Source of the DNA: Pseudomonadota bacterium
GTDB taxonomy: Bacteria; Pseudomonadota; Gammaproteobacteria; Acidiferrobacterales; Acidiferrobacteraceae
DNA: 64,000 bases
Assembly (NCBI GenBank): GCA_021795715.1
Contig: JAJYPD010000007.1
Span: 8,956 to 72,955, forward strand
Direction: 5' to 3'
The position numbers and the translations under genes were made by a program. The notes beneath the pieces were generated by a model that was given only the letters and a program-made list of their open reading frames with translations, did no database searches and was not told where the DNA came from. Positions 36,159-52,137 of the stretch are shown one piece after another; positions within the stretch are counted from its first letter, which is position 1, and every line of letters starts with the position of its first letter.

Positions 36159-37222
36159 GCGTACGCAAACCGGTGGAATGCGGGGTTCCCGAAGCGGGCC
36201 CCTACATGCACCCAGTCATGAAGAAGAACTACGGGGCATGGAAGTGGCATGAGCGTCCGCGTCCCGGTGTTTTGCACCATGTTGCCAAGGGCGGTGACGA
36301 GCTCTGGACGGTGCGCGCCGGTACGCAGCGCCAGATGGACGTCGGCACGATCCGCACACTGTGCGACATCGCCGATCGTTATGCCGACGGGTATGTGCGC
36401 TTCACGACGCGCAACAACATCGAATTCATGGTGGCCAAGGAGTCGCAGGTGGCTCCGCTGATCAAGGCCCTGCAGGCGGCTGGGTTCCCTGTGGGCGGCA
36501 CCGGCAACTCGATTTCCATGATCTCGCATACGCAAGGCTGGCTGCATTGCGACATACCGGGCACTGACGCCTCTGGCGTGGTCAAGGCATTGATGGATGA
36601 GCTGCATGAGGAGTTCATCAACGAGCGCCTGCCCAACCGGTTGCGCATCTCCACCTCCTGTTGCGAAATCAACTGCGGTGGTCAGGCGGACATCGCCATC
36701 AACATCCAGCATACAAAGCCCCCGCGCATCAATCACGATCAGGTCGCAAACGTCTGCGAGCGCCCAAGCGTCATTGCCCGTTGCCCGGTTGCGGCCATCC
36801 GCCCGGCGATGGTGAACGGCAAGCCGTCTCTGGAAGTCGACGAACGCAAGTGTGTCTGCTGCGGCGCGTGCTTCCCGCCATGCCCGCCGATGATGATCAA
36901 CGATCCGGAACACTCCAAACTGGCGATCTGGGTGGGCGGCAAGCACTCCAACGCGCGCAGCAAGCCTTCGTTTCACAAGCTCGTCGTCGCCAATCTGCCG
37001 AACAACCCGCCGCGCTGGCCCGAGGTGGCGGCCGTCGTCAAGCGCATCATCCATGCGTACAAGGATGGTGCCCATGACTGGGAGCGTATGGGCGAATGGA
37101 TTGAGCGGATTGGTTGGCCGCGGTTCTTTGAACTCGTGGATCTGCCGTTTACCAAGTTCCATGTCGACAACTGGCGTGGCGGGCGGTTGAGCCTGAACGC
37201 GTCGACCTACGTTCGCTTCTAG
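36155..37222 (+). CDS. dsrB: Reverse-type dissimilatory sulfite reductase beta subunit
   Basis: Sulfite reductase fold, Cys clusters STSCCEINCGG and CVCCGACFPPCP. ATGA overlap with dsrA. Confidence 0.95.
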   Translation: MSVRKPVECGVPEAGPYMHPVMKKNYGAWKWHERPRPGVLHHVAKGGDELWTVRAGTQRQMDVGTIRTLCDIADRYADGYVRFTTRNNIEFMVAKESQVAPLIKALQAAGFPVGGTGNSISMISHTQGWLHCDIPGTDASGVVKALMDELHEEFINERLPNRLRISTSCCEINCGGQADIAINIQHTKPPRINHDQVANVCERPSVIARCPVAAIRPAMVNGKPSLEVDERKCVCCGACFPPCPPMMINDPEHSKLAIWVGGKHSNARSKPSFHKLVVANLPNNPPRWPEVAAVVKRIIHAYKDGAHDWERMGEWIERIGWPRFFELVDLPFTKFHVDNWRGGRLSLNASTYVRF

Positions 37223-37236
37223 TCTAGGAACAGGCC

Positions 37237-37596
37237 ATGAAAATCGGCATCTTGGTCAATGAAGGCCCTTACCAGCATCAGGCGGCAGACAGCGCGTACC
37301 AGTTCGCCGTCGCCGCCCTGAAGGCGGGCCATCAAGTGCAAAGGATCTTCTTCTATCACGATGGCGTGCACAATGCGTCGTCCCTGACCGAGCCGCCGCG
37401 GGATGACCGCCAGATCGTGCAACGCTGGTCGCAGCTTGCCGAGGAGCACAAGGTGGACCTGGTCGTGTGCATCGCCGCGGCGCTGCGCCGGGGTATCCGC
37501 GAGCAGAATCTCGCGCCGGGTTTTCGCATATCCGGCCTCGGACAGCTGGTCGAGTCGGGTATCCAGGCGGACCGCCTGGTGGTATTTGGCGATTAG
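37237..37596 (+). CDS. dsrE: Sulfurtransferase DsrE
   Basis: NEGPYQHQAADSAYQFA...FRISGLGQLVESGIQADRLVVFGD is near-colinear with A. vinosum DsrE. Confidence 0.9.
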   Translation: MKIGILVNEGPYQHQAADSAYQFAVAALKAGHQVQRIFFYHDGVHNASSLTEPPRDDRQIVQRWSQLAEEHKVDLVVCIAAALRRGIREQNLAPGFRISGLGQLVESGIQADRLVVFGD

Positions 37597-37605
37597 GGGG
37601 CCGCG

Positions 37606-37995
37606 ATGAGCATGGAAGAAGGAGAAACAACCGGGGTCGTCAAGCGGTTTCTGTTCGTCAACCGCAAGGCGCCCTACGGAACGATTTACGCACTGGAGGC
37701 GCTCGAGGTGGTTCTGATCACCGCGGCTTTCGATCAGGACGTAAGCCTCGCGTTCCTTGATGATGGCGTCTACCAGCTCCTGAAGACGGCGGATCCGACC
37801 GGCATCGGCATGAAAAATTTCGCGCCGACCTACCGGGCCCTCGACGATTACGACATCACGAAGCTGTTCGTGGAACGGGAATCTCTCGAGGAGCGCGGAT
37901 TACCAGAGGACAACTTCGTCGTACCGGTGACGGTCATCAGTCGGGCGGAAATGGCCGACATGATGGCGGCCCAGGACGTCGTACTGTCATTTTAA
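37606..37995 (+). CDS. dsrF: Sulfurtransferase DsrF
   Basis: DsrE/F/H fold (FLFVNRKAPYGTIYALEALEV), second gene of the EFH triplet. Confidence 0.9.
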   Translation: MSMEEGETTGVVKRFLFVNRKAPYGTIYALEALEVVLITAAFDQDVSLAFLDDGVYQLLKTADPTGIGMKNFAPTYRALDDYDITKLFVERESLEERGLPEDNFVVPVTVISRAEMADMMAAQDVVLSF

Positions 37996-38006
37996 AAGGG
38001 GACGAC

Positions 38007-38309
38007 ATGCTGCATACCGTCAACAAATCACCGCTACAAAGCCGGACGCTCGAGCAATGTCTTGCCCATGTCCGGCCGGGCGGGGCCGTATTACTGATTG
38101 AAGACGCCGTTTACGCGGCGACGGCACGCACGGCGGCCGGAGCGCAAATCGAGAAGAGCGTCGCGCAGTTTCCCGTGTACGTACTGGAACCCGACCTGAA
38201 GGCGCGCGGTATAGCCAGCAAGGACGTGGTCAAGGGCGTGACGGCAGTCGATTACGCCGGTTTCGTGAAGCTCGTGACAGAGCACGACGCCGTGCAAGCG
38301 TGGCTCTAG
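38007..38309 (+). CDS. dsrH: Sulfurtransferase DsrH
   Basis: MLHTVNKSP... 100 aa, the TusB/DsrH family position. Confidence 0.9.
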   Translation: MLHTVNKSPLQSRTLEQCLAHVRPGGAVLLIEDAVYAATARTAAGAQIEKSVAQFPVYVLEPDLKARGIASKDVVKGVTAVDYAGFVKLVTEHDAVQAWL

Positions 38310-38343
38310 GGTCGCAGACATTCAGGGTGAACAGGAGAGTACC

Positions 38344-38676
38344 ATGGCATACGAAGTGAACGGACAGAGCGTGACGGCAGACGAAGAGGGTTACATTGTC
38401 AATTTGGCCGAATGGAGCGAGCCGCTTGCCAACGTCATCGCGCAAAGTGAAGGCCTTGAGCTGACGTCCAACCACTGGGAAGTGATCAACTTCCTGCGTG
38501 AATACTACGGTGAATTCCAGATCGCGCCCGCGATCCGGGTGCTGACCAAGGCCATTGGCAAGAAGCTTGGTCCGGACAAGGGCAACAACAAGTATCTCTA
38601 CGACCTGTTCCCCTACGGTCCGGCCAAGCAGGCCTGCAAAATCGCCGGGCTGCCCAAGCCCACGGGGTGTATCTAA
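38344..38676 (+). CDS. dsrC: DsrC sulfur-carrier protein
   Basis: TusE/DsrC fold. C-terminal arm ...KQACKIAGLPKPTGCI has both conserved cysteines (penultimate Cys, and Cys 11 residues upstream). Confidence 0.95.
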   Translation: MAYEVNGQSVTADEEGYIVNLAEWSEPLANVIAQSEGLELTSNHWEVINFLREYYGEFQIAPAIRVLTKAIGKKLGPDKGNNKYLYDLFPYGPAKQACKIAGLPKPTGCI

Positions 38677-38705
38677 CAGCGGATCCCGGAGGCGGAGGCG
38701 GAATC

Positions 38706-39473
38706 ATGGCGACATGGACCATAGCGTATGCAGTGTTGTTGTACCTCGCGGCGATCGTTCTGGTCGGAGGGCTTTGCTACCGCATAGCACTCTACGCCAT
38801 GACAAAGGCCCCGCTCCGGATTCCCACCATGCCTGCGCCCCGGACACGTTCCGGCGTCGCCGTGCGCATGGCGGGCGAAGTGGGGCTCTTTACCAGCCTC
38901 TTTCGCGGCGACAAATGGGCTTGGATCTGGAGCTATCTCTTTCACGTCAGCCTTCTCCTCGTGCTGCTTCAGCACCTGCGCTATGTGTTCGTGAGCGTCC
39001 CCACGTGGGTGGTGTGGGAGTCGCCGTTTGGCAGTTACGCGGGGGCGGTGCTCGTCGTCTCCCTCATCGGACTGTTTGGGCGGCGGCTGATTAATGCGCG
39101 CGTGCGGTTCCTGTCTGGACCGTCGGACTATCTGATGCTGGTCTTGCTGTTTGCCATCGGTGTGACGGGCGCGATGATGCGCTTTGTCAGCCGCGTGAAC
39201 ATCGTCGGCTTCAAGGCGTTCATTCTTGGTCTCATGTACATGCATCTCCATCCGCTTCCGGATGACACGCTCATTCTGGTGCATGTCGGTCTCGTGGCCC
39301 TGCTCATGCTGGTGCTGCCCTTTAGCAAACTGCTGCATGCGCCAGGCGTCCTTTTCAGTCCGACCCGTAATCAGGTGGACAATGCGCGCCACGAGGCGCA
39401 GACACCGCGTGATCAGACCGCGCGCGGTGCCCGCGTTGGAGCAGAGCCCGTCGGTCAGGATGGTGCCCTATGA
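38706..39473 (+). CDS. dsrM: DsrM, NarI-like dihaem b membrane subunit
   Basis: 5 predicted TM helices with conserved His. Start at MATWTIAY; the track ORF begins 13 codons earlier, inside dsrC. Confidence 0.9.
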   Translation: MATWTIAYAVLLYLAAIVLVGGLCYRIALYAMTKAPLRIPTMPAPRTRSGVAVRMAGEVGLFTSLFRGDKWAWIWSYLFHVSLLLVLLQHLRYVFVSVPTWVVWESPFGSYAGAVLVVSLIGLFGRRLINARVRFLSGPSDYLMLVLLFAIGVTGAMMRFVSRVNIVGFKAFILGLMYMHLHPLPDDTLILVHVGLVALLMLVLPFSKLLHAPGVLFSPTRNQVDNARHEAQTPRDQTARGARVGAEPVGQDGAL

Positions 39474-40960
39474 GCGATATCACCGTACCAGCGCTTGGCG
39501 AATATGTGGAGACCCCCGAGCCGCGCGCCGGAGTGACAAAAGACATCCATACCTTCAAGGCAGGTCCCGAGCACCAGCGCGCGCTGGGATTCCCGGAAAG
39601 CCTGGTGGATGGCTGGCAGGAGAAGGCCATCCGCCGCCTGGGTGAACTGCTCGATACGCAGCGTGGACTGCGTGTCTACATGGATTCGTGCGTCAAGTGC
39701 GGCGCGTGCACGGACAAGTGCCATTATTTTCTGGGTACGGGCGAGGCCAACAATATGCCGGCGGCGCGCGCGGATCTGCTGCGCAAAGTGTACCGGCGGT
39801 ACTTCACGTGGCCCGGAAAATGGTTTCCCAAGCTTGTGGGTGCCACCGATCTGACGCCGGAAGTCCTCGATTCCTGGTACACGTACTTCCATCAATGCTC
39901 GCAGTGCCGGCGCTGCTCGGTGTTTTGTCCCTACGGGATTGACACCGCCGAGGTGTCCATGGCGGCGCGCGAGATCATGGACAGCATTGGCGTAGGCACA
40001 AAGTACACCAACGAGATTCTCGGCAAGGTTCACAAGGTCGGCAACAATCTCGGTCTTCCGGAGCCGGCACTGCGCAATACCCTCGAAGGTCTGGAGGAGG
40101 ACGTCAAGGACAGCACGGGCGTTGACGTGCGCTTCCCGGTGGACGTCGAGGGCGCCGAGGTGCTTCTCATCACGCCATCGGCCGACTTTTTTGCCGAACC
40201 GCACATCGACGGATTGATCGGTTATGCCAAGGTGTTCCACCAGGCGGGCATCAGCTGGACACTCAGCACGCACGCCTCGGAGGCGGCCAACTTCGCGATG
40301 TTCATCGGCAGCCATGAACAGATGCGCAAGGTGGCGATACGTATACGCGAAGCGGCGATTGCGCTCAAGGTCAAGCGGATTGTCGTGGGGGAATGCGGTC
40401 ACGCGTGGCGGGTCGCCTATTCCTTCTGGAACACCCTCATTGGGCCTTTTGACTTTCTGGATCCGCGCTACCCGCAGCCGCAGCATATCTGCGAGGTGAC
40501 GGAGGATCTCATCGGCCGGGGCGCCCTGAAGCTCGATCCGAGCGCGAACGACGAACGCGTCGTCACCTTCCACGATTCGTGCAACGTGGCACGCGCCACG
40601 CGCATGGGCGGCCGTCCGGGCGGCCAGTTCGAGGTTCCACGTTCCGTCATCCGGTCTGTCTGCAAGAATTTCGTGGAGATGAGCCCTGAGACAACGGGAG
40701 ACAGGACGTTTTGTTGCGGAGGCGGCGGCGGACTTTTGACCGACGACCTTCTGGAACTGCGCGTCAAAGGCGCGCTGCCGCGGATGCAGGCGCTGGATGC
40801 GGTCGTGAAGGAAAAGAAGGTCACGCATATGGCCGCGATCTGTGCCATATGCAAGAGCCAGTTTACGAAGGTACTGCCTTATTACGGCTTGGACCGCGAG
40901 ATGATCATCAGTGTGCATCAACTTGTGGGTGACGCCATCGTATTGGGCGCAAAAGAATAG
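39470..40960 (+). CDS. dsrK: DsrK, HdrD-like FeS catalytic subunit
   Basis: CVKCGACTDKC and CSQCRRCSVFCP ferredoxin motifs. CCG domain FCCGGGGG. Confidence 0.95.
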   Translation: MSDITVPALGEYVETPEPRAGVTKDIHTFKAGPEHQRALGFPESLVDGWQEKAIRRLGELLDTQRGLRVYMDSCVKCGACTDKCHYFLGTGEANNMPAARADLLRKVYRRYFTWPGKWFPKLVGATDLTPEVLDSWYTYFHQCSQCRRCSVFCPYGIDTAEVSMAAREIMDSIGVGTKYTNEILGKVHKVGNNLGLPEPALRNTLEGLEEDVKDSTGVDVRFPVDVEGAEVLLITPSADFFAEPHIDGLIGYAKVFHQAGISWTLSTHASEAANFAMFIGSHEQMRKVAIRIREAAIALKVKRIVVGECGHAWRVAYSFWNTLIGPFDFLDPRYPQPQHICEVTEDLIGRGALKLDPSANDERVVTFHDSCNVARATRMGGRPGGQFEVPRSVIRSVCKNFVEMSPETTGDRTFCCGGGGGLLTDDLLELRVKGALPRMQALDAVVKEKKVTHMAAICAICKSQFTKVLPYYGLDREMIISVHQLVGDAIVLGAKE

Positions 40961-40981
40961 CGGGCACAGAAGGGGATCAGA

Positions 40982-42892
40982 ATGACAGTAGGAAAACAGC
41001 AAGGGGAGACGACGGGTCGCACGTTCCGGCGGTACCAGGACGGCGAGGCGGAATTCGATTCGTTCCAGGAGCAGATCTTCAAGGCTGGCTGGTCGCACAA
41101 GTGCCCGGTGTACGTACAGCGCACGCCGGCCTGCCAGGGTCAGTGTCCGGCTGGCGAGGACATCCGGGGATGGCTTGACGTGGTACGCGGTCTCGACAAG
41201 CCGCCGACAGGCGTCACATGGCAGGAACATGCCTTCCGGCGTCTGACGCGCGCCAATCCGTTCCCGGGCGTCATGGGCTACGTGTGCCCGGCGCCATGCG
41301 AAGAAGGCTGCAATCGCCGCGCCGTGGAGGACTTCGTCGGCATCAATGCGGTCGAGCAGTTCGTGGGCGAAGCGGCCATCAAGGGTCAATACGGTTTCAA
41401 GAAACCCGAGAAGGAAACCGGCAAGCGGGTCGCGATCATCGGCGGGGGTGTGGCGGGGCTTGCGGCGGCCTACCAGTTGCGGTTGCGCGGCCACGGCTGC
41501 ACGATTTTCGAGTCGCGCGCAGAGCTGGGCGGCATGTTGCGCTACGGACTGCCCAATTACCGGACGCCGCCTGCGGTCGTCCAGGGGGAAATCCAGCGCA
41601 TTCTCGATATGGGTGTTGAAGTGCACACCAATACCCGGATCGGTGTGGATATCAAGATCGATGATCTGGACCGCGATTTCGATGCGGTCTTCTGGGCCAT
41701 CGGCACCCAAAACGGGCGCATACCGAATATTCCCGGCGCCAATGCGCCCAACTGTGTGGGCGGTATCGAATTTTTGCGCCAGTTCAACGACGGCAAGCTG
41801 CCTTCGGTTCCGGGGCGCATCGTGGTCATCGGCGGCGGCGACACCTCCATCGACGTGACGACGGTGGCGCGCAAGCTGGGCGGCTTTAGCGGCATCGATG
41901 GGGAAGGAAAGCCGTTGACCTACACGGCGGACATGGTCACATCGGCGGCGGCGCACAGCGGTCAGAAGGTCACTCTGACCTCGACGCTGCCGCTCGACCG
42001 GATGCGTGCATCGGCGCGTGAAGTGGCGGATGCGCGGTCGCTCGAAGTCGAGATCCTGGGCGGCCTCATGCCGCTGTCTGTGACCTGCAACGCAAAAGGG
42101 GTTGCGGTGGGCGTGCGTTTCGCGCCGTGCCATCACGGCGCCGACGGCCACCGTGTGCGCATCGAAGGTGACGAGATCGAGATTCCGGCGGACCTGGTCG
42201 TGTTCGCGATCGGCCAGTACGCCGATATGACGGGCCTTGAGAGTCTGGATAACGGACGCCAGGCGATCTCGGCGGGTCCGGCCTTGGAGGTTATCGGCCG
42301 TCCGCGCCATTTTGTCGGCGGGGACGTCATTGCCCCCCATCTTCTGGCGACGGCGATCGGTCATGCCGCGGCGGCGGCCGAGAGTATCGACGCGCTGCTG
42401 CGCGGCGAAACCCCCGCACGGCGGCCGCGGATCGACAAGCGCCATTACGACATCCGTGAAGGGCTGGTCGAGAATGCCAAACCCGTCAATGGCGTCGTGA
42501 CGAGCCGGACTTTTGTGCACAACTTTGAAAACCGCTCGACGCAGGAGGTCATCAAGGCGGACAGTCTGTTCCTGGGCCACTTCGAAACGACTCCACGGAT
42601 CCATCGGGAGGAGAGACGGCTGGCCGATCTGTTTGCCCGCGGCGGGGAACGCATCATGCCGCTGACCGAGGAACAGGCGGTCAAAGAGGCCAAGCGCTGC
42701 ATGAGCTGCGGTCTCTGTCTGGAGTGCGACAATTGCATGGTGTTTTGCCCGCAGGCGGCCGTCAGTAAGGTCCCGCGCGACCAGCATGCAATTGGCTACT
42801 ACGTGACGACCGACTATAAGCGCTGCATCGGATGCCACATCTGCCAGGACGTCTGTCCTGCGGGGTACATCCAGATGGGCTTGGGCGAATGA
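40982..42892 (+). CDS. dsrL: DsrL, NAD(P)H:acceptor oxidoreductase (GltD-like flavoprotein with C-terminal ferredoxin domain)
   Basis: N-terminal FeS Cys motifs, dinucleotide folds IIGGGVAGLAAAY and VVIGGGDTSIDV. C-terminal CMSCGLCLECDNC and CIGCHICQDVCP. Confidence 0.9.
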   Translation: MTVGKQQGETTGRTFRRYQDGEAEFDSFQEQIFKAGWSHKCPVYVQRTPACQGQCPAGEDIRGWLDVVRGLDKPPTGVTWQEHAFRRLTRANPFPGVMGYVCPAPCEEGCNRRAVEDFVGINAVEQFVGEAAIKGQYGFKKPEKETGKRVAIIGGGVAGLAAAYQLRLRGHGCTIFESRAELGGMLRYGLPNYRTPPAVVQGEIQRILDMGVEVHTNTRIGVDIKIDDLDRDFDAVFWAIGTQNGRIPNIPGANAPNCVGGIEFLRQFNDGKLPSVPGRIVVIGGGDTSIDVTTVARKLGGFSGIDGEGKPLTYTADMVTSAAAHSGQKVTLTSTLPLDRMRASAREVADARSLEVEILGGLMPLSVTCNAKGVAVGVRFAPCHHGADGHRVRIEGDEIEIPADLVVFAIGQYADMTGLESLDNGRQAISAGPALEVIGRPRHFVGGDVIAPHLLATAIGHAAAAAESIDALLRGETPARRPRIDKRHYDIREGLVENAKPVNGVVTSRTFVHNFENRSTQEVIKADSLFLGHFETTPRIHREERRLADLFARGGERIMPLTEEQAVKEAKRCMSCGLCLECDNCMVFCPQAAVSKVPRDQHAIGYYVTTDYKRCIGCHICQDVCPAGYIQMGLGE

Positions 42893-42893
42893 G

Positions 42894-43373
42894 ATGAAGA
42901 CCCGGGCGCTCGTCATCGCGGGATTGTCGGTTCTGATCTTCTTTGGTGCGATCTGGGCGGACCATCGCGGCACCGTACCGGTGCCGCTCGTTCCGACCGC
43001 ACAGGGTCACTGTGTCCTGCCGACGGCGCTCATGCGCCGCGAGCACATGATGCTGCTGCGCCAGGTGCGCGAGCAGATTGTGCGGGACGACAAGAATGAT
43101 CGCACCGACCGTCTGACCAACTGCATTGCCTGCCATGTGCAGACCAATAGCGCGGGGGCACCGATCCCAATCAATCAGCGCGGACAGTTTTGTGCCGCCT
43201 GCCACACGTATGTCGGGGTGCATCTCGACTGCTTCGCCTGCCACGCGACAGTGCCGCAAAAGGCGGTTTCGATCGCAAATCTCATGGGCACCAAGGGAGA
43301 ACAGGCGGCGTATTCGATTCCGCGGGTGATCCTTCAGAATGCGCCCGCATCGCTTTCAAGGGGGCATTCATGA
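42894..43373 (+). CDS. dsrJ: DsrJ, periplasmic trihaem cytochrome c
   Basis: Signal anchor plus three CxxCH sites (CIACH, CAACH, CFACH). Confidence 0.9.
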   Translation: MKTRALVIAGLSVLIFFGAIWADHRGTVPVPLVPTAQGHCVLPTALMRREHMMLLRQVREQIVRDDKNDRTDRLTNCIACHVQTNSAGAPIPINQRGQFCAACHTYVGVHLDCFACHATVPQKAVSIANLMGTKGEQAAYSIPRVILQNAPASLSRGHS

Positions 43374-44134
43374 CCGGTGATCGGACAGATCTCGTGAGTG
43401 ACGCCGCGCCCGAAGAGGGACACGACCCCTCACGGCGCCGGCTGTTTGCGCTGGCAGGTGGCGCGGTCGCGGCGGTGCTGACGCCGGGTGTGACGCTGTT
43501 TGCGCGCACGCTGACGGTCGGATCGGGCAAAACGCCGGTGCGCTACGGTCTGCTTATCGACAGCACCCGGTGCACGCAGGGCTGTGATGCCTGCGTCACG
43601 GCCTGCCAGGATTACAACGGTCTGTCAAAGAAGATCACGCCCGATACGGCGCAGTGGATCCGCAAGGTAACGGTCACGGATCCGCAGACGGGCCTGACCC
43701 GCAGCTTTCCTGTCATGTGCCAGCATTGTGCGCAGGCGACGTGCGTAGATGTGTGCCCAACCGGCGCATCGTATCGACGGCCGGATGGGATCGTGCTTGT
43801 CGACAAGCACCGCTGTATCGGCTGCCGTTACTGTCTCATGGCCTGCCCGTACAAGGCGCGTTCGTTCGTCGGACGGGTGGTGAAAGATCAAAAGCCATGG
43901 GCGCCACGCGGAAAAGGCACTGCAGAAGCATGTACGATGTGCGTCGAACGGGTCATGGACGGAAAGGCGCCGGCCTGCGTGACCGCCTGCGCCGAGAGGG
44001 GCAAGAAGGCGATGGTGTTTGGCAATCTGCATGATCCGAAAAGCGAGATTGCGCAAAAACTTGCGCAGTTTCCGACAACCACCATACGCGCCGATCTGGG
44101 CCTTGAGCCCGGCGTGCATTACCGCGGCATTTAG
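43370..44134 (+). CDS. dsrO: DsrO, periplasmic FeS ferredoxin-like subunit
   Basis: Tat motif SRRRLFALAGG. Cys clusters CTQGCDACVTAC, CQHCAQATCVDVCP, CIGCRYCLMACP and CTMCVERV. ATGA overlap with dsrJ; the track ORF from 43190 is an upstream extension. Confidence 0.9.
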   Translation: MTGDRTDLVSDAAPEEGHDPSRRRLFALAGGAVAAVLTPGVTLFARTLTVGSGKTPVRYGLLIDSTRCTQGCDACVTACQDYNGLSKKITPDTAQWIRKVTVTDPQTGLTRSFPVMCQHCAQATCVDVCPTGASYRRPDGIVLVDKHRCIGCRYCLMACPYKARSFVGRVVKDQKPWAPRGKGTAEACTMCVERVMDGKAPACVTACAERGKKAMVFGNLHDPKSEIAQKLAQFPTTTIRADLGLEPGVHYRGI

Positions 44135-44154
44135 ACGTCTTTCTGGGAGACCCT

Positions 44155-45396
44155 ATGGCAACCATGCACTACAGAGAGATCCCGGGCCGAAGCTTCCTCT
44201 ACTGGGCGGGACTGGCGGTGTGCGCCCTGCTGACCGTGGCCGGCGTGGGGGCCGGGCTTTATATGCGGGCCGAGGGGCACCATGTCACCGGGATGAATCA
44301 GCAGATCGTGTGGGGCATCGAGCATGTGTTCGCTGTCTTCCTGATCGTCGCGGCCTCGGGGGCCCTGAATGTGGCCTCCATCGCCTCGGTTTTCGGACGC
44401 ACGATCTACAAACCCCTGTCGCGGCTGTCGGGATTGCTGGCCATCGCGCTGCTAATCGGCGGCCTGTGGGATCTGGTCTTGGATCTTGGGCGTCCAGGAC
44501 ATGTGCTGGACGCCATCATCTACGGCAACTTCCGGTCGATCTTTGCATGGAACATGTACCTGTACGCCGGCTTTTTGCTGATTACGGGTTTTTACCTTTG
44601 GTTCATGATGGAGCGGCGCCTCAACCGATACAGCCACGCGATGGGCGTCACTGCATTTCTGTGGCGGTTGACGCTGACCACCGGCACGGGTTCGATCTTT
44701 GGTTTCCTGGTGTCGCGCAGCGCCTACGATACGGCGCTTCTGGCACCGATGTTCATCATCATGTCGTTTGCCTACGGGCTGGCGACGTTCCTGCTTATCC
44801 TGATCGGCGGTTTTCGCGCCCTGGCCCGGCCGGTCGGGGAGCGCATTCGGGGCCGCCTGAAGATTCTGTTGACCGTGTTCGTGGCAGCGGTGCTGTATTT
44901 TGCGGTTGTCTATAACCTGACCAATCTCTACATGCCCGGCCAGCGCGCGTTCGAGGGATTCGTGCTGCTTCATGGTGGTGTTTACACGATGCTTTTCTGG
45001 GTCGGGCAGATCCTGATCGGCGGCGTGTTCCCGCTCGTATTGCTGCTTGGCAAGAAAGGGGCGAGCGCCAGAACTTTGGTCATGGCAAGCGTGGCCGTGC
45101 TGATTGGCGGTCTCGCACAAGTCTACATCATCATCGTAGGGGCTCAGGCCTATCCGCAGCAGCTGTTTCCGGGAATGATCGTGCACAGTTCCTTCTACGA
45201 CGGGGTTGTCAACCCGTACATCCCGGGATGGCCCGAGACGACGCTCGCTGTGAGCGGTGTGGGATTAGTCGGGCTGATCGTCTTGCTGGCGGTGCGGGTG
45301 CTGCCCTTCCTGCCGCTCAGTCTCGCCGATGAGGTCACGGACGTGCACGGACATGATCAGACGGTGACCGCTGCCGGTGCTGCCGCAACGCCATGA
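44155..45396 (+). CDS. dsrP: DsrP, NrfD/PsrC-like integral membrane subunit
   Basis: About 10 TM helices, polysulfide-reductase NrfD-like. Position after dsrO. Confidence 0.9.
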   Translation: MATMHYREIPGRSFLYWAGLAVCALLTVAGVGAGLYMRAEGHHVTGMNQQIVWGIEHVFAVFLIVAASGALNVASIASVFGRTIYKPLSRLSGLLAIALLIGGLWDLVLDLGRPGHVLDAIIYGNFRSIFAWNMYLYAGFLLITGFYLWFMMERRLNRYSHAMGVTAFLWRLTLTTGTGSIFGFLVSRSAYDTALLAPMFIIMSFAYGLATFLLILIGGFRALARPVGERIRGRLKILLTVFVAAVLYFAVVYNLTNLYMPGQRAFEGFVLLHGGVYTMLFWVGQILIGGVFPLVLLLGKKGASARTLVMASVAVLIGGLAQVYIIIVGAQAYPQQLFPGMIVHSSFYDGVVNPYIPGWPETTLAVSGVGLVGLIVLLAVRVLPFLPLSLADEVTDVHGHDQTVTAAGAAATP

Positions 45397-46844
45397 TGCG
45401 CCGCGTCTACATATCGGCCGCTCATAAGTCGTCTGGAAAGACGACTGTCTCGATCGGTCTGTGTGCGGCGCTAAAGGAGCGCGGCCTGCGGGTGCAGCCC
45501 TTCAAGAAGGGGCCCGACTTCATCGATCCGCTCTGGCTTACCCAGGCGGCCGGGCGTGCCTGTCACAATCTCGACTTCCACACCATGAGCATCGCCGAGA
45601 TCCGCGATTGCTTCGCCATGGCCTCGCAGGATGCTGATATCGCCGTCATCGAAGGCAACAAGGGGCTGTTCGACGGCGTGGCACTCGACGGCAGCAACAG
45701 CAACGCCGCGCTTGCGCGGCATTTAGCGGCCCCGGTGGTGCTCGTCATCAACGCCCAGGGCATCAATCGGGGTATCGCGCCGCTTGTCATCGGCTATCGG
45801 CATTTCGATCCGGATCTGCCCGTGGCCGGTATCATCTTGAACCGTGTCGGAGGCGCGCGCCACGAGGCCAAACTGCGGGCCGTCCTGAAGGCTTTTACCG
45901 ATGTGCCGGTTCTCGGCGCCCTCTGGGATTCGGCGTCCGTGTCGATTACGGAACGTCATCTGGGCTTGATTCCAAGCGGCGAGCACGACGAAGCGGCATC
46001 TGCGGTGGAACGACTTTCGCGGGTCATCCAGGATCATGTCGATGTGGATGCCATTGCCCACATCGAGCCCGGTGAACGGCCTGTTTCGGTGACAGCGCGC
46101 CCGCGCAGGCGCGCGGTGGACTTGCGGATCGGTGTCCCGCGCGACGCCGCATTCAGCTTCTATTATCCGGGTGACCTGGAGGCGCTGGCGGCAGGCGGCG
46201 CCGAACTCGTATTTTTCGATACACTAAAGGACAAGCGCCTGCCCGAGGTCGACGGCCTCTTCATCGGTGGCGGCTTTCCTGAGACACAGGCGGGGGCGCT
46301 TGCCGCAAACAGCGGCATGCGCCGCGCCATCCGCGCGGCTATAGAGGAGGGTCTGCCCGTCTACGCCGAGTGCGGCGGCCTCATGTATCTCTGCCGGACT
46401 CTTTCGTGGCGCGGGGCGACCTACCCGATGGTCGGCGCGCTGGCTGCGGATGCGCAGATGGAAGAAAAGCCCATCGGTCATGGCTATGTGAATTTGCAGC
46501 CAACCGCCGCGCATCCGTGGTGGCCGGGGGGACCGGTGACGGGACGTGCGGTCGTGCCGGCCCATGAATTTCACTATTCGCATCTTGTCGATGTGGCTGC
46601 GGACACGGTGTACGCCTACAAGGTCACACGGGGGCACGGGATAGACGGCCAGAACGATGGCATCGTCTACAAGAACGTCCTGGCCGGCTATGCCCATCTG
46701 CGCGATGTACAGGCGTCGCCTTGGACGGGCCGTTTTCTGGATTTCGTGCGCAACCGCCGTCCAGCGGCAGGGATCTTGGCGGACGCATCCTGTTGTTGCT
46801 GCGCGCCCTCGATGGCCGGAGCGCCTTGTGACGCGCGCTCATGA
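45393..46844 (+). CDS. dsrN: DsrN, CobB/CbiA-like amidotransferase (siroheme amidase)
   Basis: P-loop AAHKSSGKTTVSIGL and GATase-like YAECGGLMYL with active Cys. ATGA overlap with dsrP. Unusual C-terminal tail containing CCCC. Confidence 0.85.
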   Translation: MMRRVYISAAHKSSGKTTVSIGLCAALKERGLRVQPFKKGPDFIDPLWLTQAAGRACHNLDFHTMSIAEIRDCFAMASQDADIAVIEGNKGLFDGVALDGSNSNAALARHLAAPVVLVINAQGINRGIAPLVIGYRHFDPDLPVAGIILNRVGGARHEAKLRAVLKAFTDVPVLGALWDSASVSITERHLGLIPSGEHDEAASAVERLSRVIQDHVDVDAIAHIEPGERPVSVTARPRRRAVDLRIGVPRDAAFSFYYPGDLEALAAGGAELVFFDTLKDKRLPEVDGLFIGGGFPETQAGALAANSGMRRAIRAAIEEGLPVYAECGGLMYLCRTLSWRGATYPMVGALAADAQMEEKPIGHGYVNLQPTAAHPWWPGGPVTGRAVVPAHEFHYSHLVDVAADTVYAYKVTRGHGIDGQNDGIVYKNVLAGYAHLRDVQASPWTGRFLDFVRNRRPAAGILADASCCCCAPSMAGAPCDARS

Positions 46845-48258
46845 CGTCGCGGTCATTGGTTGCGGGGCCGGCGGATACAAGGCGGCGATAACCGCCGCAC
46901 AGCATGGCGCCCGTGTGGTGGTCATCGAGCGCGAGCAGGTCGGCGGTGCCTGCCTGAACCGGGCGTGTGTGCCAAAGAAGGCGCTTGCGCACATCGCCAG
47001 TCTGATTCTCCAAACCCAAACGCTTACCGGTCACGGCCTGACAGGCCGGGTGAGCGGCGATCTGGCTGCCGCCATCGCCTTCAAAAATCAGGTTGTCGAC
47101 GAATTGCGGCGCGGGCTGCCTCTGCGATTGAAGCCGCTGGCCGTGGAGACCATCATCGGCGAAGCGCGCATGGCCGGTCCCAATCACATCCTCGTCGAAA
47201 CGGCGGAGGGGAAGCGGCGCATCGAGGCGCGATCCATCATCATCGCGACCGGCGCCGCGCCACGCGCGCTCGCCGGTTGCGCCGTGGATCACGACCGCAT
47301 CGTCAACGCCGACAGCTTCATTCCGACCCTGGCCGCACCGCTTGGTGACGTTCTGTGTGTTGGCGGGGGCGCGCTGGGTGTCGAGGCGGCCTTCTTCCTG
47401 CATCAGTTCGGAGGCCGTGTCACGATCGTTGAGGAAAAGGGGCGCCTTCTTGACCTGCCGGCGATTCCCGAGCGGGCTTCGAATCTGCTTGAACGCAGCC
47501 TGACAAGCCTTGGCGTCACCGTCTGCACGCAACAGACGGTTCGTTCGGCCCGGGCCACACATGAGGGCGTTTGTGTCGAATTCGCCGATGGGCGTGTGTC
47601 CAGCTTTGCGCGCGTTCTGGTCGCGGTAGGGCGCCAACCGCGTCCCGATGATCTGGGGCTCGATGATCTTGGCATTGAACGGGATGCCAACGGATTCATC
47701 GTCACGAACGAGTTCCTGCAAACGAATATTCCGGGTCTTTTCGCCGTAGGTGACGTCAAGGGCGGACCCATGACCGCGGCGGCGGCTCTTCACGATGGCC
47801 GCGTGGCCGGAGAAAATGCCACACAGGGTGCCGTGCGCCAGAGAAATTATCATCAGGTGCCGCTTGTCGTGGATTCCGTTCTGCCCATCGCCGCCATGGG
47901 CCTGTCGGAGGAACTGGCGGAATCCGCTGGATTCACTCCAGACACGGTCTACATCCCTTTGCGCGCATCAGTCAAGGCGCGCGCCTACAATGACGCCACC
48001 GGGTTCATCGAGATCGTCCATGACCAGGAAACTGGCCAGATGCTGGGTGGCTGTATTGTGGGTGCAGGCGCCGATGAATTGATCCACATCATCGCGCTGG
48101 CCTGCCGCTCGAAACGAGGCCTTTGGTCCCTCACGGATCTTGATTATGGCCACCCGTCATGGAGCGAGGATGTCGGGACCGCGCTGGAACCCTATATCCG
48201 GACGTTGACACAGACGGCCGACACCGTGTTTAGGCCCGGCATTTATGCGGCAGATTAA
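46828..48258 (+). CDS. Class-I pyridine nucleotide-disulfide oxidoreductase (dihydrolipoamide dehydrogenase-like)
   Basis: VAVIGCGAGGYKAA FAD fold, redox disulfide GGACLNRACVPKK (CxxxxC), second Rossmann VGGGALGVEAAFFLHQFGGRVTIVEE (acidic end, NADH-like), and C-terminal His-Glu dyad YGHPSWSE. GTG at 46828 is preceded by GGAG and overlaps dsrN by 17 nt. Confidence 0.8.
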   Translation: MTRAHDVAVIGCGAGGYKAAITAAQHGARVVVIEREQVGGACLNRACVPKKALAHIASLILQTQTLTGHGLTGRVSGDLAAAIAFKNQVVDELRRGLPLRLKPLAVETIIGEARMAGPNHILVETAEGKRRIEARSIIIATGAAPRALAGCAVDHDRIVNADSFIPTLAAPLGDVLCVGGGALGVEAAFFLHQFGGRVTIVEEKGRLLDLPAIPERASNLLERSLTSLGVTVCTQQTVRSARATHEGVCVEFADGRVSSFARVLVAVGRQPRPDDLGLDDLGIERDANGFIVTNEFLQTNIPGLFAVGDVKGGPMTAAAALHDGRVAGENATQGAVRQRNYHQVPLVVDSVLPIAAMGLSEELAESAGFTPDTVYIPLRASVKARAYNDATGFIEIVHDQETGQMLGGCIVGAGADELIHIIALACRSKRGLWSLTDLDYGHPSWSEDVGTALEPYIRTLTQTADTVFRPGIYAAD

Positions 48259-48346: not shown

Positions 48347-49975
48347 ATGGAAAGACAGTACGTTGGGAAAACGCCGTTGTGGCAGCAATGGTGGAATGAC
48401 TGGCGGTCCCGGCCGGCGGATGGCTGGCGGCGCAAATATCGCCCGTGGCTGGTGGGGGCGGCACCGGTCGGTCTCATGGTGCTTCTCCTCGCGGCCGTCA
48501 TCGCCGAAGGGGCCGACGATGGGCACGGACCCCATGCGATGCTGTTTCATGGGCTGGCGCTGGCCGTCTTGCTGCTGGCCCTGATCGGTACCGCCGGCAT
48601 CTGGGTCGTTACATTCCGTTCATTGCTGACGCCGCTTTATCACCTGCGCACATGGGCGGCGCGGGTACGCGCGGGCAATTTGTCCGTGCGCATCCCGGCC
48701 TCCGTCGCCGATGGGGAATTCGCCAAGCTCGCCGCCGACGTAAACAGTGTAAGCGAGATTTTGAGCAACCTGTCCGCCGAGCGCTCCTCGCTGCCCTACC
48801 GGCCAATGACCGCGCGCTGGCTCGAGATCCTAAATGACATCACCGCGGGCATTGCCAGTTCCCAGGATCTGGATGAACTGCTCCCGCGCTTTCTGTATAC
48901 GCTCTGGAACGCCAACGAAATCCGGGCCGGCATGGTGCGCCTGGCAACCGATGACGGCCACCTCCGTCTCATGGCCAGCATCGGTCTGCCCGACGAGATT
49001 GTCGCAAAAGAACGGCGTATTCCGCTTGATTGCTGCCTGTGCGGGCACGCGGTCGGTCAGACGGCGCTGAGCATCGGATCCGATATTCATACCTGTTGCG
49101 AATCCTGGGGCCAATCGCCTTTTTCGGGCGAGGATCTGGTGCTGCTCGCCGTGCCTCTGCGCTGCGAGGGCCGGACGGTCGGTATCTACAATCTGTTCAT
49201 GCCCCGGACCCGCATCGTCGGCCACAATGATGTCTCGGATCTGCTCCTTGGCCTTGGCCGCCATCTGGGCGCAGCCATCGAAAAGATGCGCCTGCAGGAT
49301 GAACGGCGTCAGCTGTCTTTGCTGCAGGAACGCATGACCATCGCGCACGAGCTGCACGACTCGCTCGCGCAGACGCTCGCTGGGCTGCGCATCCAGGCGC
49401 AGGTTCTCCGCGAGACCCTGGCCCAGGATGAGCATCCGGGCGTACGCAGTGAATTTGACCGGCTGAGCGCGGGTCTCGAAGTGGCCCACAGGGAAGTGCG
49501 CGACCTGATCCGCAACTGGCGGGCCGTGGGGGCCGAAGGCGGTTTGATGCCGGCGCTCGATGCCACGATCACCCGTTTTCAGGCGGAAACCGGGATTCCG
49601 GTGTTCGTGCAGAAGGATTGGCACGGCGTTTTGCCGGCCAGTTACCAGACACACGTGTTACGCGTGATCCAGGAGGCTCTAAGCAATGTGCGCAAGCATG
49701 CCCATGCACAGACGGTGCGGGTTTTGCTGGCGAGCGAAGCGGACGGTTTGTATCGGGTTCTGATAGAGGATGATGGGGAGGGCGCCGTGCCAGGCGAGGA
49801 AAGGGACGACCAGGAAGAACACTTTGGACAGGCCATCATGCGCGAACGCGCGCGCGCCATGGGCGGCGAATTGCGCGTTGAACGGGAAATAGGCGAAGGG
49901 ACGCAAGTCCTTCTCACCTTCCGGAACCCGGCGGTTTCGCTGTCCCGGGCGAATTATCCGGTGGCGGCTTCATGA
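48347..49975 (+). CDS. NarX/NarQ-type sensor histidine kinase (2 TM - HAMP - GAF - HisKA_3 - HATPase_c)
   Basis: Two TM helices with about a 13-aa outer loop, HAMP (LRTWAARVRAGNLSVRIP), GAF region with CCLCGH...HTCCESW, H-box IAHELHDSLAQTL, and HATPase IQEALSNVRKHA...DDGEG. Start at 48347 (GAGG upstream); 48290 is an alternative. Confidence 0.8.
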   Translation: MERQYVGKTPLWQQWWNDWRSRPADGWRRKYRPWLVGAAPVGLMVLLLAAVIAEGADDGHGPHAMLFHGLALAVLLLALIGTAGIWVVTFRSLLTPLYHLRTWAARVRAGNLSVRIPASVADGEFAKLAADVNSVSEILSNLSAERSSLPYRPMTARWLEILNDITAGIASSQDLDELLPRFLYTLWNANEIRAGMVRLATDDGHLRLMASIGLPDEIVAKERRIPLDCCLCGHAVGQTALSIGSDIHTCCESWGQSPFSGEDLVLLAVPLRCEGRTVGIYNLFMPRTRIVGHNDVSDLLLGLGRHLGAAIEKMRLQDERRQLSLLQERMTIAHELHDSLAQTLAGLRIQAQVLRETLAQDEHPGVRSEFDRLSAGLEVAHREVRDLIRNWRAVGAEGGLMPALDATITRFQAETGIPVFVQKDWHGVLPASYQTHVLRVIQEALSNVRKHAHAQTVRVLLASEADGLYRVLIEDDGEGAVPGEERDDQEEHFGQAIMRERARAMGGELRVEREIGEGTQVLLTFRNPAVSLSRANYPVAAS

Positions 49976-50616
49976 GGGTCATGCTGATCGATGATCACGC
50001 GCTTTTTCGCAGTGGACTTGAGCATTTGCTTGTCCGGCGCGGGATCGATGTGGTGGCTACGACCAGCGACGGGGAGCAGGCGCTGGCCCTGATCCAGGAG
50101 ACGCGCCCCCATGTGGTGCTCCTGGATATCCGCATGCCGAAACTCGGCGGCATCGAGACCTTGCGGCGACTGCGTGCCGGAGGCGTCACCGTGCCGATCG
50201 TGATGTTGACAACGAGCAGCGACGAGGCCGATCTCGTGTCTTCCCTCCATCATGGCGCACAAGGCTATCTGCTAAAGGACATGGAGCCAGACGGCCTGGT
50301 CGCCGCGCTGGCGCAGATCGAGACCGGGGAGATGATCGTTGCCCCGGAATTTGCGCCCGTACTGGCCCGCTTCATCCAGAGCGGGCCGGAGGCCATGAAA
50401 GCTTCCCACGCCTTTAGCGATCTCACACCGCGGGAGCTGGAGATCCTCGGGCATCTGGGGGACGGGCAGAGCAACAAGGTCATCGCCCGTTCGCTTGGCA
50501 TCTCCGAGGGAACGGTCAAGCTCCACGTCAAGGCCATTCTGCGCAAACTCAAGCTGAGCTCGCGCGTACAGGCCGCGGTGCGTTCGGTCGAGGAAGGATT
50601 TGGCCGGAAGAACTGA
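49972..50616 (+). CDS. NarL/FixJ-family response regulator (REC + LuxR-type HTH)
   Basis: MLIDDH...VVLLDIRMP receiver. LTPRELEILGHLGDGQSNKVIARSLGISEGTVKLHVKAILRKL HTH. ATGA overlap with the kinase gene. Confidence 0.9.
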   Translation: MRVMLIDDHALFRSGLEHLLVRRGIDVVATTSDGEQALALIQETRPHVVLLDIRMPKLGGIETLRRLRAGGVTVPIVMLTTSSDEADLVSSLHHGAQGYLLKDMEPDGLVAALAQIETGEMIVAPEFAPVLARFIQSGPEAMKASHAFSDLTPRELEILGHLGDGQSNKVIARSLGISEGTVKLHVKAILRKLKLSSRVQAAVRSVEEGFGRKN

Positions 50617-50652: not shown

Positions 50653-52065
50653 TTAGCCGGCGGCCCGTAATGCCGAGGCGGAAGCGTGCGTCCGGCCGGC
50701 CCAGCGGTCATGCAGCCGCACGACTTCGCCGATAATGACGAGGGTGGGCGGCGTAATGGATTGGCGGCTCACGACGTCGGGCAAGTCGCTCAACGTGCTC
50801 GTCAGCACCCGCTGCTGCGGGGTCGTACCGCGTTCGACCAATGCGGCGGGGGTTGTGGGCGGCAGGCCATGCCGGATGAGTTCGCGGCTGATCGTTGCAA
50901 CCGCCGCCACGCCCATGTAGAACACCAGCGTTTGATGGGGTTGCGCCAGGGCGGCCCAGTTCACGGACGATCCGTCGTTCTGGCAGTGGCCGGCGACGAA
51001 TACGCAGGACTGCGCATACTCCCGGTGGGTCAATGGCAGGTCACCGTACGCGGCGCAGCCCAGTGCGGCTGTGATGCCAGGGACAACCTGGAACGGAATG
51101 CCGGCTTCCACCAGGGTGTCGATTTCCTCGCCCCCCCGACCGAAAACAAAGGGATCGCCACCCTTGAGGCGTACGACCCGCTTGCCGGCGGCCGCCAGGT
51201 CGACCAGCAACTGGTTGATGTTTTCCTGCGGAACCGCATGACGGCCAGCGCTCTTGCCTACGTCGATGCGCTCTGCGTCCTTGCGGCACAGTGCGAGGAT
51301 CGGGGGGGCGACCAGGCGGTCATAAACGATCACATCGGCTTCCTGCATGAGGCGCAAGGCGCGCAGCGTCAGAAGATCGGGATCACCGGGCCCGGCGCCG
51401 ACAAGCGACACGAGTCCCAAGGTATCGTCGGCGCGCGGAGAGGCGAGCTCCTGGGCGAAAAGGCCCTCGGCCTCCTCGGTACGGCCGCCGAGCAGAAGTT
51501 CGGCAACGGGGCCCTGCAGGATGCGCTCCCAGAACCGCCGCCGCGCATCGGGTCGGGGAATATGCTGGCGCACCTGGGTCCGCCGCCGTGCCATGAAATG
51601 GGCCAGCTGCCCGTAGGCCGAGCCGATCATCGTTTCGAGGCGCACCCGCAGAAGGCGCGCCAAAACAGGCGAGGCGCCGCCGCTCGAAACGGCGACAAGC
51701 ACCGGGGAGCGGTCGATGATCGACGGCATGATGAAAGTGCACAGCGCAGGGTGGTCCACCACGTTGACCGGAATGTGGGCCGCGGTCGCGGCCTCCGAGA
51801 CGTGCTTGTTGACCCGGCCATTGCTCGTCGCCGCGATCACGATCCGCGCGCCTGCCACATCCAGGGGATCGAATGATCGTGCCACATGCGCGATTCCGCC
51901 CGCTTCCTTCAGTGCAGAAAGCCCCGCGCATAGCTCAGGCGCGATGACCGTCACCTGCGCGCCCGCTTCTCTCAGAATGCGGATCTTGCGCAAGGCCACT
52001 TCACCGCCCCCAACGACCACGGCGTGGGCCCCATGCATGTTGAGAAAGATGGGTAAATGGTTCAT
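50653..52065 (-). CDS. cysG: Siroheme synthase CysG (precorrin-2 dehydrogenase/ferrochelatase + SUMT)
   Basis: N-terminal NAD fold VVVGGGEVALRK. C-terminal methyltransferase LVGAGPGDPDLLTLRAL, RLKGGDPFVFGRGGEE. Confidence 0.9.
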   Translation of the reverse strand: MNHLPIFLNMHGAHAVVVGGGEVALRKIRILREAGAQVTVIAPELCAGLSALKEAGGIAHVARSFDPLDVAGARIVIAATSNGRVNKHVSEAATAAHIPVNVVDHPALCTFIMPSIIDRSPVLVAVSSGGASPVLARLLRVRLETMIGSAYGQLAHFMARRRTQVRQHIPRPDARRRFWERILQGPVAELLLGGRTEEAEGLFAQELASPRADDTLGLVSLVGAGPGDPDLLTLRALRLMQEADVIVYDRLVAPPILALCRKDAERIDVGKSAGRHAVPQENINQLLVDLAAAGKRVVRLKGGDPFVFGRGGEEIDTLVEAGIPFQVVPGITAALGCAAYGDLPLTHREYAQSCVFVAGHCQNDGSSVNWAALAQPHQTLVFYMGVAAVATISRELIRHGLPPTTPAALVERGTTPQQRVLTSTLSDLPDVVSRQSITPPTLVIIGEVVRLHDRWAGRTHASASALRAAG

Positions 52066-52121: not shown

Positions 52122-52137
52122 TATCCCTGTGGGGATA
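52122..52137 (-). promoter_or_regulatory. 7-2-7 inverted heptamer pair TATCCCT-GT-GGGGATA upstream of cysG
   Basis: 57-72 nt upstream of the cysG ATG. Same heptamer family as the dsrA upstream array. Confidence 0.45.

Follow-up and report, generated by a model that had tools for sequence, protein, structure and literature searches.

A NarX/NarL-related two-component pair as a candidate regulator of the oxidative dsr genes in sulfur-oxidizing bacteria

Gene content of the locus

The dsr pathway is the main route for oxidizing stored sulfur in free-living and symbiotic sulfur bacteria, and it serves widely as a marker in work on oceans, sediments, and symbiosis. Here, we describe a sensor histidine kinase together with a NarL-type response regulator encoded beside a dsr operon in a 64,000-nucleotide stretch of contig JAJYPD010000007.1 from a member of the Acidiferrobacteraceae; this whole stretch is referred to as the window. 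An earlier reading of the window (the original prediction) had put the pair forward as a candidate dedicated regulator of Dsr sulfur oxidation. Our computational analysis establishes the architecture and clade of the kinase, its co-occurrence and synteny with dsr genes, and the co-variation of the pair with an operator-like palindrome upstream of dsrA, and it identifies three conserved cysteines in the GAF domain of the kinase. These sequence comparisons support that proposal, and we consider it likely that the pair is a two-component system regulating the oxidative dsr operon in a pathway-specific way.

The kinase (542 amino acids) is encoded at positions 48347..49975 of the forward strand, with an ATG at 48347 and a GAGG sequence 7 nt upstream. 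Its open reading frame (ORF), ribosome-binding site and start codon, Pfam and NCBIfam matches, and phylogeny place it in a dsr-associated sister clade of NarX. The start codon of the regulator gene overlaps the stop codon of the kinase gene in an ATGA (49972-49975), and the two genes are translationally coupled. The regulator (214 amino acids; 49972..50616, forward strand) consists of a REC domain and a GerE helix-turn-helix, as judged from Pfam, NCBIfam, and an alignment with NarL.

The predicted target operon, dsrABEFHCMKLJOPN (34884..46844, forward strand), was delimited from its ORFs, from the recognition of DsrN as a CobB-type amidase, and from tblastn synteny with 120 loci. The gene that follows dsrN and precedes the kinase gene encodes an E3-like flavoprotein disulfide reductase (46828..48258, forward strand; Pfam Pyr_redox_2 and Pyr_redox_dim); its start is uncertain. 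An 88-nt gap separates its stop at 48258 from the kinase ATG. On the other side, the sirohaem synthase gene cysG (50653..52065, reverse strand; NCBIfam CysG, 632 bits) converges on the regulator gene, with 36 nt between the regulator stop and the end of cysG. These coordinates agree with the arrangement first described for the pair, 88 nt downstream of the disulfide reductase gene and converging on cysG.

Architecture of the sensor kinase

The kinase begins with two membrane helices (approximately residues 33-58 and 62-90; 48443..48616, forward strand) joined by a loop of 3-13 residues, as located by AlphaFold2 and a hydropathy scan. In the AlphaFold2 model of the full-length kinase, built with 80 homologues (mean pLDDT of 80.5), the helices span residues 33-58 and 62-108, so that the loop outside the membrane is limited to 3-13 residues and there is no periplasmic domain. 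A HAMP linker follows (residues 91-137; 48617..48757, forward strand); it is helical in the model and matches PF00672 with 23.7 bits, just below the 25-bit cutoff. The next domain, a GAF domain (residues 173-312; 48863..49282, forward strand), is the probable cytoplasmic sensor and matches GAF_2 (PF13185) with 31.6 bits, above the gathering score of 28.6. The catalytic part comprises HisKA_3 (residues 328-393; dimerization and phosphoacceptor) and HATPase_c (residues 434-526) domains recognized by Pfam (49328..49924, forward strand), and its catalytic boxes, namely H337 in an ELHD box, N447, and DxGxG, are all invariant across homologues. The architecture is thus the one originally predicted, with two helices joined by about 13 residues, no periplasmic nitrate-binding P-box, and HAMP, GAF-like, HisKA_3, and HATPase modules, the HAMP match being marginal.

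Modeled alone, the GAF domain reached a pLDDT of 84.5 and a pTM of 0.83. Foldseek aligned this model with the GAF domains of Nlh2, PtsP, and NifA (TM scores of 0.74-0.78) and with fRMsr, a cysteine-using enzyme (0.72). With the full-length model as the query, Foldseek matched nothing but generic kinase cores, such as those of DesK, WalK, and LOV kinases, which are uninformative about the sensor. Pfam gave no PAS match in the kinase. A cytoplasmic N-terminal motif, W-x2-PPA-x-GWRRK (residues 19-31; 48401-48439), lies just before the first membrane helix, is conserved in the membrane-bound members of the clade, and may be an interaction or topology signal.

Relation to NarX and NarL

Databases name such kinases either "NarX" or simply "histidine kinase". 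The window's kinase scores 165.4 bits against the NCBIfam NarQ model (NF008184; cutoff of 553) and 140.6 bits against the NarX model (NF007896; cutoff of 578), far below both cutoffs, and the match is limited to residues 297-528. The regulator reaches 217.2 bits against the NarL model (NF007935), below its cutoff of 250; it is 43% identical to Escherichia coli NarL in a global alignment and keeps the LLD(I/L)xMP motif and the recognition helix TVKxHVK.

We compared 118 homologous kinases, with their gene neighborhoods, from species-representative genomes and named GenBank contigs, and measured the spacing of their membrane helices with a hydropathy scan. They fall into two groups. Members of the dsr clade have an adjacent regulator 53-83% identical to that of the window and membrane helices that are about 10 residues apart or absent; in classical P-box NarX from Burkholderiales and Rhodocyclales, the regulators are 33-49% identical and the helices are about 150 residues apart. 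A maximum-likelihood tree likewise separates 82 dsr-type kinase rows from 39 P-box NarX (SH-aLRT of 87-94). Given this split, together with the distinct regulator identities and helix spacing, the kinase belongs on sequence grounds to a sister clade of NarX and is not itself a NarX, in line with the earlier view that it is no classical NarX. Labeling these kinases as the nitrate/nitrite sensor NarX is a systematic misannotation, which is corrected here. The pair probably derives from NarX/NarL by loss of the periplasmic nitrate-binding domain and rewiring to dsr. At one locus in the clade (L067; G324:C11), the regulator is 60% identical to that of the window and the membrane helices appear to be about 135 residues apart; this kinase may be an intermediate form in which a periplasmic domain has been retained.

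The nitrate/nitrite systems NarX-NarL and NarQ-NarP of E. coli share with the window's pair the HAMP domain, a GAF-like module with a cysteine cluster, the HisKA_3 core, and a REC-GerE regulator. The sites predicted for the window's regulator also have the 7-2-7 arrangement of inverted heptamers known for NarL; the consensus heptamer of NarL is TACYYMT, and that of the predicted sites is TAYCCCW. The differences lie in the periplasmic loop, which is about 110-150 amino acids long in E. coli NarX and NarQ and at most 13 in the window's kinase, in the targets, which are nar, nap, nir, and frd genes for NarX-NarL and, by prediction, dsr and cysG for the window's pair, and in the fact that some members of the window's clade are soluble.

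Co-occurrence and synteny with dsr genes

The pair travels with dsr genes in about a hundred bacterial genera. We sampled 401 Gammaproteobacteria genomes from 321 genera, accepting kinases at 200 bits or more and DsrB at an E-value of 1e-60 or less. Kinase and dsrB occurred together in 103 genomes, the kinase alone in 15 (most of them fragmented or incomplete), dsrB alone in 18, and neither in 265, so that the pair is found in approximately 85% of the sampled dsr-bearing Gammaproteobacteria. Of the 63 cases with both genes on a single contig, 57 have them at a distance of less than 16 kb. Among the named hosts are Thiohalomonas denitrificans, Ectothiorhodospiraceae, Thiolinea, Cocleimonas, Ca. 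Thiodiazotropha, Sedimenticola, Thiocapsa, and beta-type sulfur oxidizers. Across purple sulfur bacteria, orthologues are 70-97% identical to the Thiocapsa kinase, with close orthologues in Thiocapsa, Thiocystis, Thiorhodococcus, Allochromatium palmeri, Marichromatium, Caldichromatium, and Chromatium weissei.

The gene order is also conserved. In tblastn searches with the window's proteins, the usual order was dsr...MKLJOPN, then dsrR or the E3-like gene, then kinase and regulator. When the ORFs neighboring the pair were clustered at approximately 76 loci, dsrN lay directly upstream in 46, cysG was within a few kilobases in 26, and an IscA-like DsrR was encoded between dsrN and the kinase in 36. 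This last slot, held by dsrR in most relatives, is taken by the E3-like gene in the window and in 8 of the first 40 loci. None of the 16 neighbor families most often seen at these loci consists of nar or nir genes. The orthologues thus adjoin dsr genes and not nar or nir genes, as the original prediction would have it.

At 39 of the approximately 76 loci, a 156-amino-acid single-domain rhodanese (PF00581, active-site motif CRSGxRS) is encoded directly 3' of the regulator; examples are L083, L085 (12170-12640), L091, L043, L045, and about 35 further loci. Kinase, regulator, and rhodanese form a conserved trio. There is no rhodanese gene at the locus in the window, and the best homologue in the genome (45% identity) is on another contig (G000:C1:81113-81475). 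At another locus (L046; G397:C1:1467001-1487000), dsrP and dsrN precede the kinase and dsrO, J, L, K, and M were undetected upstream; no dsrB was found in this genome, which is 72% complete, and the cluster may be truncated or rearranged.

Palindromes upstream of dsrA and cysG

Upstream of dsrA in the window lies a NarL-type 7-2-7 palindrome, P1 (TATCCCCTAATGGATA; 34775..34790), a predicted binding site of the regulator. A second site, P2 (TATCCCCTCAGGGGCA; 34809..34824), starts 34 nt after the start of P1, has one mismatch to the palindrome, and probably overlaps the -35 region. A third palindrome (TATCCCCACAGGGATA, minus-strand reading; 52122..52137) is located 57-72 nt upstream of cysG. NarL-like heptamers had been noted upstream of both genes in the original prediction, and these sites bear that out.

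We counted the exact 16-bp palindrome TAYCCC-N4-GGGRTA 110-310 nt before dsrA. Of 37 dsr clusters to which the pair is linked, 27 have it (18 of 23 and 9 of 14). Where the pair is present elsewhere in the genome, a first set gave 4 of 10 genomes; in a Chromatiaceae/Sedimenticolaceae-type subclade in which the pair is always unlinked, and which includes Thiocapsa sp. KS1, the palindrome was found in 6 of 7, or in all 7 with one mismatch. None of 10 dsr genomes without the pair had it. In one family (f11), the site is found in both genomes that have the pair and is missing from the single genome that does not. Because the dsrA palindrome co-varies with the presence of the pair in this way, we predict that the regulator binds the dsrA palindromes and, in the window's lineage, the cysG palindrome. 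The palindrome was also absent from all 8 second dsr clusters of two-cluster genomes (L194-L199, L213, and L220, compared with site-bearing copies such as L159, L200, L212, and L219), which suggests that the two clusters of one genome are regulated differently.

The sites are rare elsewhere. The 2.1-Mb genome of the window contains five exact TAYCC-N6-GGRTA sites, including those at dsrA and cysG. In 1.45 Mb of kinase-flanking DNA, this pattern occurs 7 times, with 2 occurrences at dsrA and 1 at cysG; the 2 are in the sole dsrA upstream regions contained in these flanks. A chance origin of the dsrA site was rejected on this count and on an expectation of approximately 1.5e-3 per 400 nt, calculated by hand.

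When the upstream regions were aligned on the palindrome, a half-site, yAyCCCAT, was conserved 33-34 nt downstream of the start of P1, and a TAGACT-like hexamer resembling a -10 element was found at +72 to +74 from the start of P1 in 17 of 22 regions. If this hexamer is the -10 element, the centers of the two sites would fall near -77 and -44, an arrangement typical of activators.

The link to cysG is confined to one family. A palindrome does precede cysG in the window, where cysG is probably a second target of the regulator in this lineage, but the site is conserved only in the window and at one other locus of the same family (L072).

Conserved cysteines of the GAF domain

The original prediction drew attention to unusual vicinal cysteines in the GAF region. 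All six of the cysteines it quoted are present (C229, C230, C232, C250, C251, and C273), and five of them form a cluster, C229-C230-L-C232-G-H ... C250-C251 (49031..49099, forward strand), assigned from conservation counts and secondary structure to the GAF lid between strands 3 and 4. In 119 homologues reaching down to 40% identity, hardly any variation is seen at C230, C232, and C250. C229 and C251, the residues that make up the vicinal pairs, are, however, confined to an Acidiferrobacter-like clade, and C273 is nearly private, its position being Tyr in nearly all other homologues. The vicinal arrangement thus does not hold beyond close relatives, but the triad C230/C232/C250 does, in full, in 59 of 78 members of the dsr-type clade. 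In the model, the triad is located in the stretch of helix and loop from strand 3 to strand 4, which in GAF domains makes up the lid of the ligand pocket. A Foldseek search and a profile search of PDB with the GAF domain returned no solved GAF structure with the same arrangement of cysteines.

The CxCG motif of this triad is also found in 41 of 42 classical P-box NarX of Burkholderiales, and it aligns beside C313/C316 of the cysteine cluster of E. coli NarX. In this respect, the cysteines are less unusual than the original prediction had them. We know of no explanation for the function of this cluster in NarX. In the literature, it serves as a feature that tells NarX from NarQ (PMC3519889, PMC1805755). 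Judged by its sequence distribution, the cysteine cluster of the dsr-type kinases is an inherited trait of the NarX family and not a dsr-specific invention.

Proposed mechanism

We propose that the kinase is held at the membrane by a bare two-helix hairpin, or is fully soluble in some lineages, and that its GAF domain would read a cytoplasmic signal, with the C230-x-C232 ... C250 triad in the pocket lid as the likeliest sensing element. Autophosphorylation on H337 would be followed by transfer to D51 of the regulator, and dimers of the phosphorylated regulator would bind the NarL-like 7-2-7 palindromes, one near -77 and one over the -35 region of dsrA. Binding would activate dsrABEFHCMKLJOPN, although the choice of activation over repression is our inference. 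Since the two regulatory genes close this string of genes on its 3' side, the pair would probably activate its own expression too. In the Acidiferrobacter-like family, the cysG site would couple the supply of sirohaem to the synthesis of DsrAB.

Several observations weigh against parts of this proposal. The statistics for the co-occurrence of kinase and dsrB (odds ratio of approximately 100, Fisher p of approximately 2e-59) ignore phylogeny. Ten of the 37 linked clusters have no exact palindrome, and three of these carry the near variant TATCCCTTTTGGGAGGGGTA. Under a strict consensus, P2 scores no better than shuffled sequence, so that only its position is conserved, and a scan of the window with the sigma-70 consensus gave no promoter upstream of dsrA. 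The cysG palindrome resembles a weak hairpin followed by a T-run and lies downstream of an EamA gene. As for the sensing element, 19 of the 78 clade members, spread over approximately ten lineages, have lost at least one cysteine of the triad, and several of these are still linked to dsr; since the triad is missing in these members and is common in nitrate-sensing NarX, it cannot by itself specify a sulfur signal.

Nature of the signal

Approximately 12 members of the clade, among them the beta-type ones and some from small-genome lineages, have neither membrane helices nor a HAMP domain. Input from the periplasm or the membrane can therefore not be general, and the signal must be received by the GAF domain or by a partner in the cytoplasm. 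The signal is thus probably cytoplasmic, a site of sensing that had been called plausible from the window alone. As to its nature, a thiol-based response of the triad to sulfane sulfur (persulfide or polysulfide), to sulfite, or to redox state is our tentative proposal, short of an even chance, and a bound metal or iron-sulfur cofactor is unlikely.

Alternatively, the cysteines may be structural (binding zinc, for example) or a leftover, with the input delivered by a partner or through the membrane. Candidates are the rhodanese, a DsrC-like protein, or DsrR, or else DsrMKJOP and the quinone pool acting through the hairpin and the W-x2-PPA-x-GWRRK motif. The loss of triad cysteines while linkage to dsr persists fits such a role, as do the recurrence of the rhodanese gene 3' of the regulator, of dsrR 5' of the kinase, and of DsrC-like genes before soluble beta-type kinases, and the conservation of the N-terminal motif. 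Yet the triad is near-invariant across most of the clade at 40% identity and is placed in the lid of the GAF pocket, the soluble members have neither hairpin nor N-terminal motif, and the window's genome has no rhodanese at the locus. We regard delivery of the signal by one of these protein partners as improbable on balance, and we give the broader explanation, with structural or leftover cysteines, the same low standing.

The DsrC-family genes (PF04358) that precede a soluble kinase at beta-type and some gamma loci deserve separate mention. They are found at L098 (6469-6783), L099 (815-1153), L105 (9128-9466), L108 (9082-9420), and L106 (9400-9738). The four beta-type proteins (L098, L099, L105, and L108) keep the inner cysteine and have no C-terminal one, ending in ...RAWSTG, with dsrR following in each of these loci. 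The protein of L106 has no cysteine in this region.

A second alternative is that the kinase is still a sensor of nitrate, nitrite, or another oxyanion, binding the anion in its cytoplasmic GAF domain and tuning dsr expression to the available electron acceptor. NreA, a nitrate-binding GAF protein (PMC9918477), offers a precedent for such binding. The closest characterized relatives of the pair are NarX/NarQ and NarL, many hosts are denitrifying sulfur oxidizers such as Thiohalomonas denitrificans and Sedimenticola, and automated annotation names the family NarX. There is, however, no P-box and no nar or nir gene among the conserved neighbors, the list of the 50 best structural matches to the GAF model does not include NreA, and the family is universal in purple sulfur bacteria. 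One of these, A. vinosum, is reported in its genome paper to have a NarX/NarL pair (Alvin_1057/1058), a candidate orthologue only, and no genes for nitrate reduction (PMC3368242). The distribution in purple sulfur bacteria and the A. vinosum pair together make nitrate an unlikely signal, and we hold both nitrate or another anion as the signal and the retained oxyanion sensor to be quite remote prospects. In a supplementary transcriptome (PMC11267869), Alvin_1057/1058 show ratios of 1.2-1.45, which are uninformative for these candidate orthologues.

That the pair mainly controls sirohaem or cofactor supply through cysG, or an unrelated regulon, with its adjacency to dsr reflecting gene order only, is very improbable: a convergent cysG with a perfect palindrome upstream and the proximity of cysG to the pair at 26 loci speak for it, but the palindrome precedes cysG only in the window and L072, and the dsrA site is kept in genomes with an unlinked pair and is missing from those with no pair.

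Returning to the dsr regulator with a sensing triad, its most far-reaching form would make this family the master switch of oxidative Dsr in gamma- and betaproteobacterial sulfur oxidizers, including purple sulfur bacteria, SUP05-type bacteria, and symbionts, directly sensing sulfane sulfur or sulfite through the GAF cysteines. We offer this as a speculation that is rather doubtful as a whole. If true, it would represent a sensing chemistry not described for GAF domains and would provide a function for the NarX "cysteine cluster".

Comparison with other regulators

To our knowledge, what has been learned about the switching of dsr is limited to promoter mapping and to effects of DsrC, DsrR, and DsrS in Allochromatium vinosum. 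The searchable full-text literature describes two-component regulators for tetrathionate, Sox, and sqr-pdo genes and none for dsr, and it names no dedicated dsr transcription factor, which agrees with the original statement that no such regulator is established. With a matching predicted site in front of dsrA only where the pair is present, the pair is probably the missing switch of the dsr pathway.

Other pathway-specific systems are known for sulfur oxidation. TspS-TspR is one of these, and it belongs, like RsrS-RsrR and SulRS, to other families of kinases and regulators than the pair described here. RsrS-RsrR of Acidithiobacillus caldus (PMC5093147) and SulRS of Campylobacterota (PMC12936845) are encoded beside their own sulfur-oxidation genes. 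All three systems resemble the window's pair in being pathway-specific and in lying next to the genes they serve, but their targets are tetrathionate or Sox genes, with no tie to dsr in any of them.

Closer parallels exist in domain composition. In NreB-NreC of Bacillus licheniformis, a cytoplasmic sensor is joined to a HisKA_3 kinase with a NarL-family regulator, and sulfide induces sulfur-oxidation genes; the sensor is, however, a PAS and not a GAF domain, the cysteine pattern is different or absent, and the target is sqr-pdo in Firmicutes (PMC9918477). NreB-NreC of Staphylococcus carnosus is an oxygen sensor with a [4Fe-4S] PAS domain. A cluster of this type takes four ligating cysteines; the window's kinase has only three conserved cysteines, and these are in a GAF fold.

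The GAF-A domain of the mycobacterial DosS/DevS, a heme-based sensor of redox state, gases, and H2S, also feeds a HisKA_3 kinase with a NarL-family partner, and the DevS GAF domain ranks with the best sequence matches found among solved GAF structures (E-value of 1.4e-5). DosS/DevS differs in having no cysteine triad, membrane hairpin, or HAMP domain. Conversely, the region aligned with the PPYHPP segment of DevS has no conserved His in the window's family, the identity of the heme ligand being read from the alignment. ArcB, the quinone-responsive kinase of E. coli, has a two-helix anchor with a very short outside loop and reads its signal with redox-active cysteines in the cytoplasm. The analogy is one of function only: ArcB combines a PAS domain and a HisKA core with a hybrid phosphorelay and an OmpR-type partner, and its sensor is not homologous.

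The present analysis yields a specific candidate pair and a defined, predicted 16-bp operator with fixed promoter geometry. Chromatiaceae would be a tractable group for work on the pair, with orthologues in Thiocapsa and A. palmeri and an operator in Thiocapsa sp. KS1.

Further sequence features

Some additional elements were found around the pair and its predicted sites. A scan with the sigma-70 consensus found no promoter 5' of the kinase gene. The 88-nt gap before this gene contains an AT-cored inverted repeat, GTTCGTATATAGTATCGAAC (48292-48311), which is not of the NarL type and may be an internal promoter or operator. After the cysG palindrome, read on the minus strand, comes TGTTTTCGTT, and this region scored as a terminator-like hairpin; the palindrome may be an operator and a weak terminator at once.

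Further perfect palindromes, TATCCCCATCGGGGTA (L037:1453) and TACCCCTATAGGGGTA (L065:3724), occur in a gap between divergent TrpD-like and Sel1-repeat-like genes (an anthranilate phosphoribosyltransferase and a repeat protein, both called by eye). At L037, a Walker-A (P-loop) motif, likewise called by eye, is encoded in the ORF that follows. The genes beside these two palindromes may be further members of the regulon.

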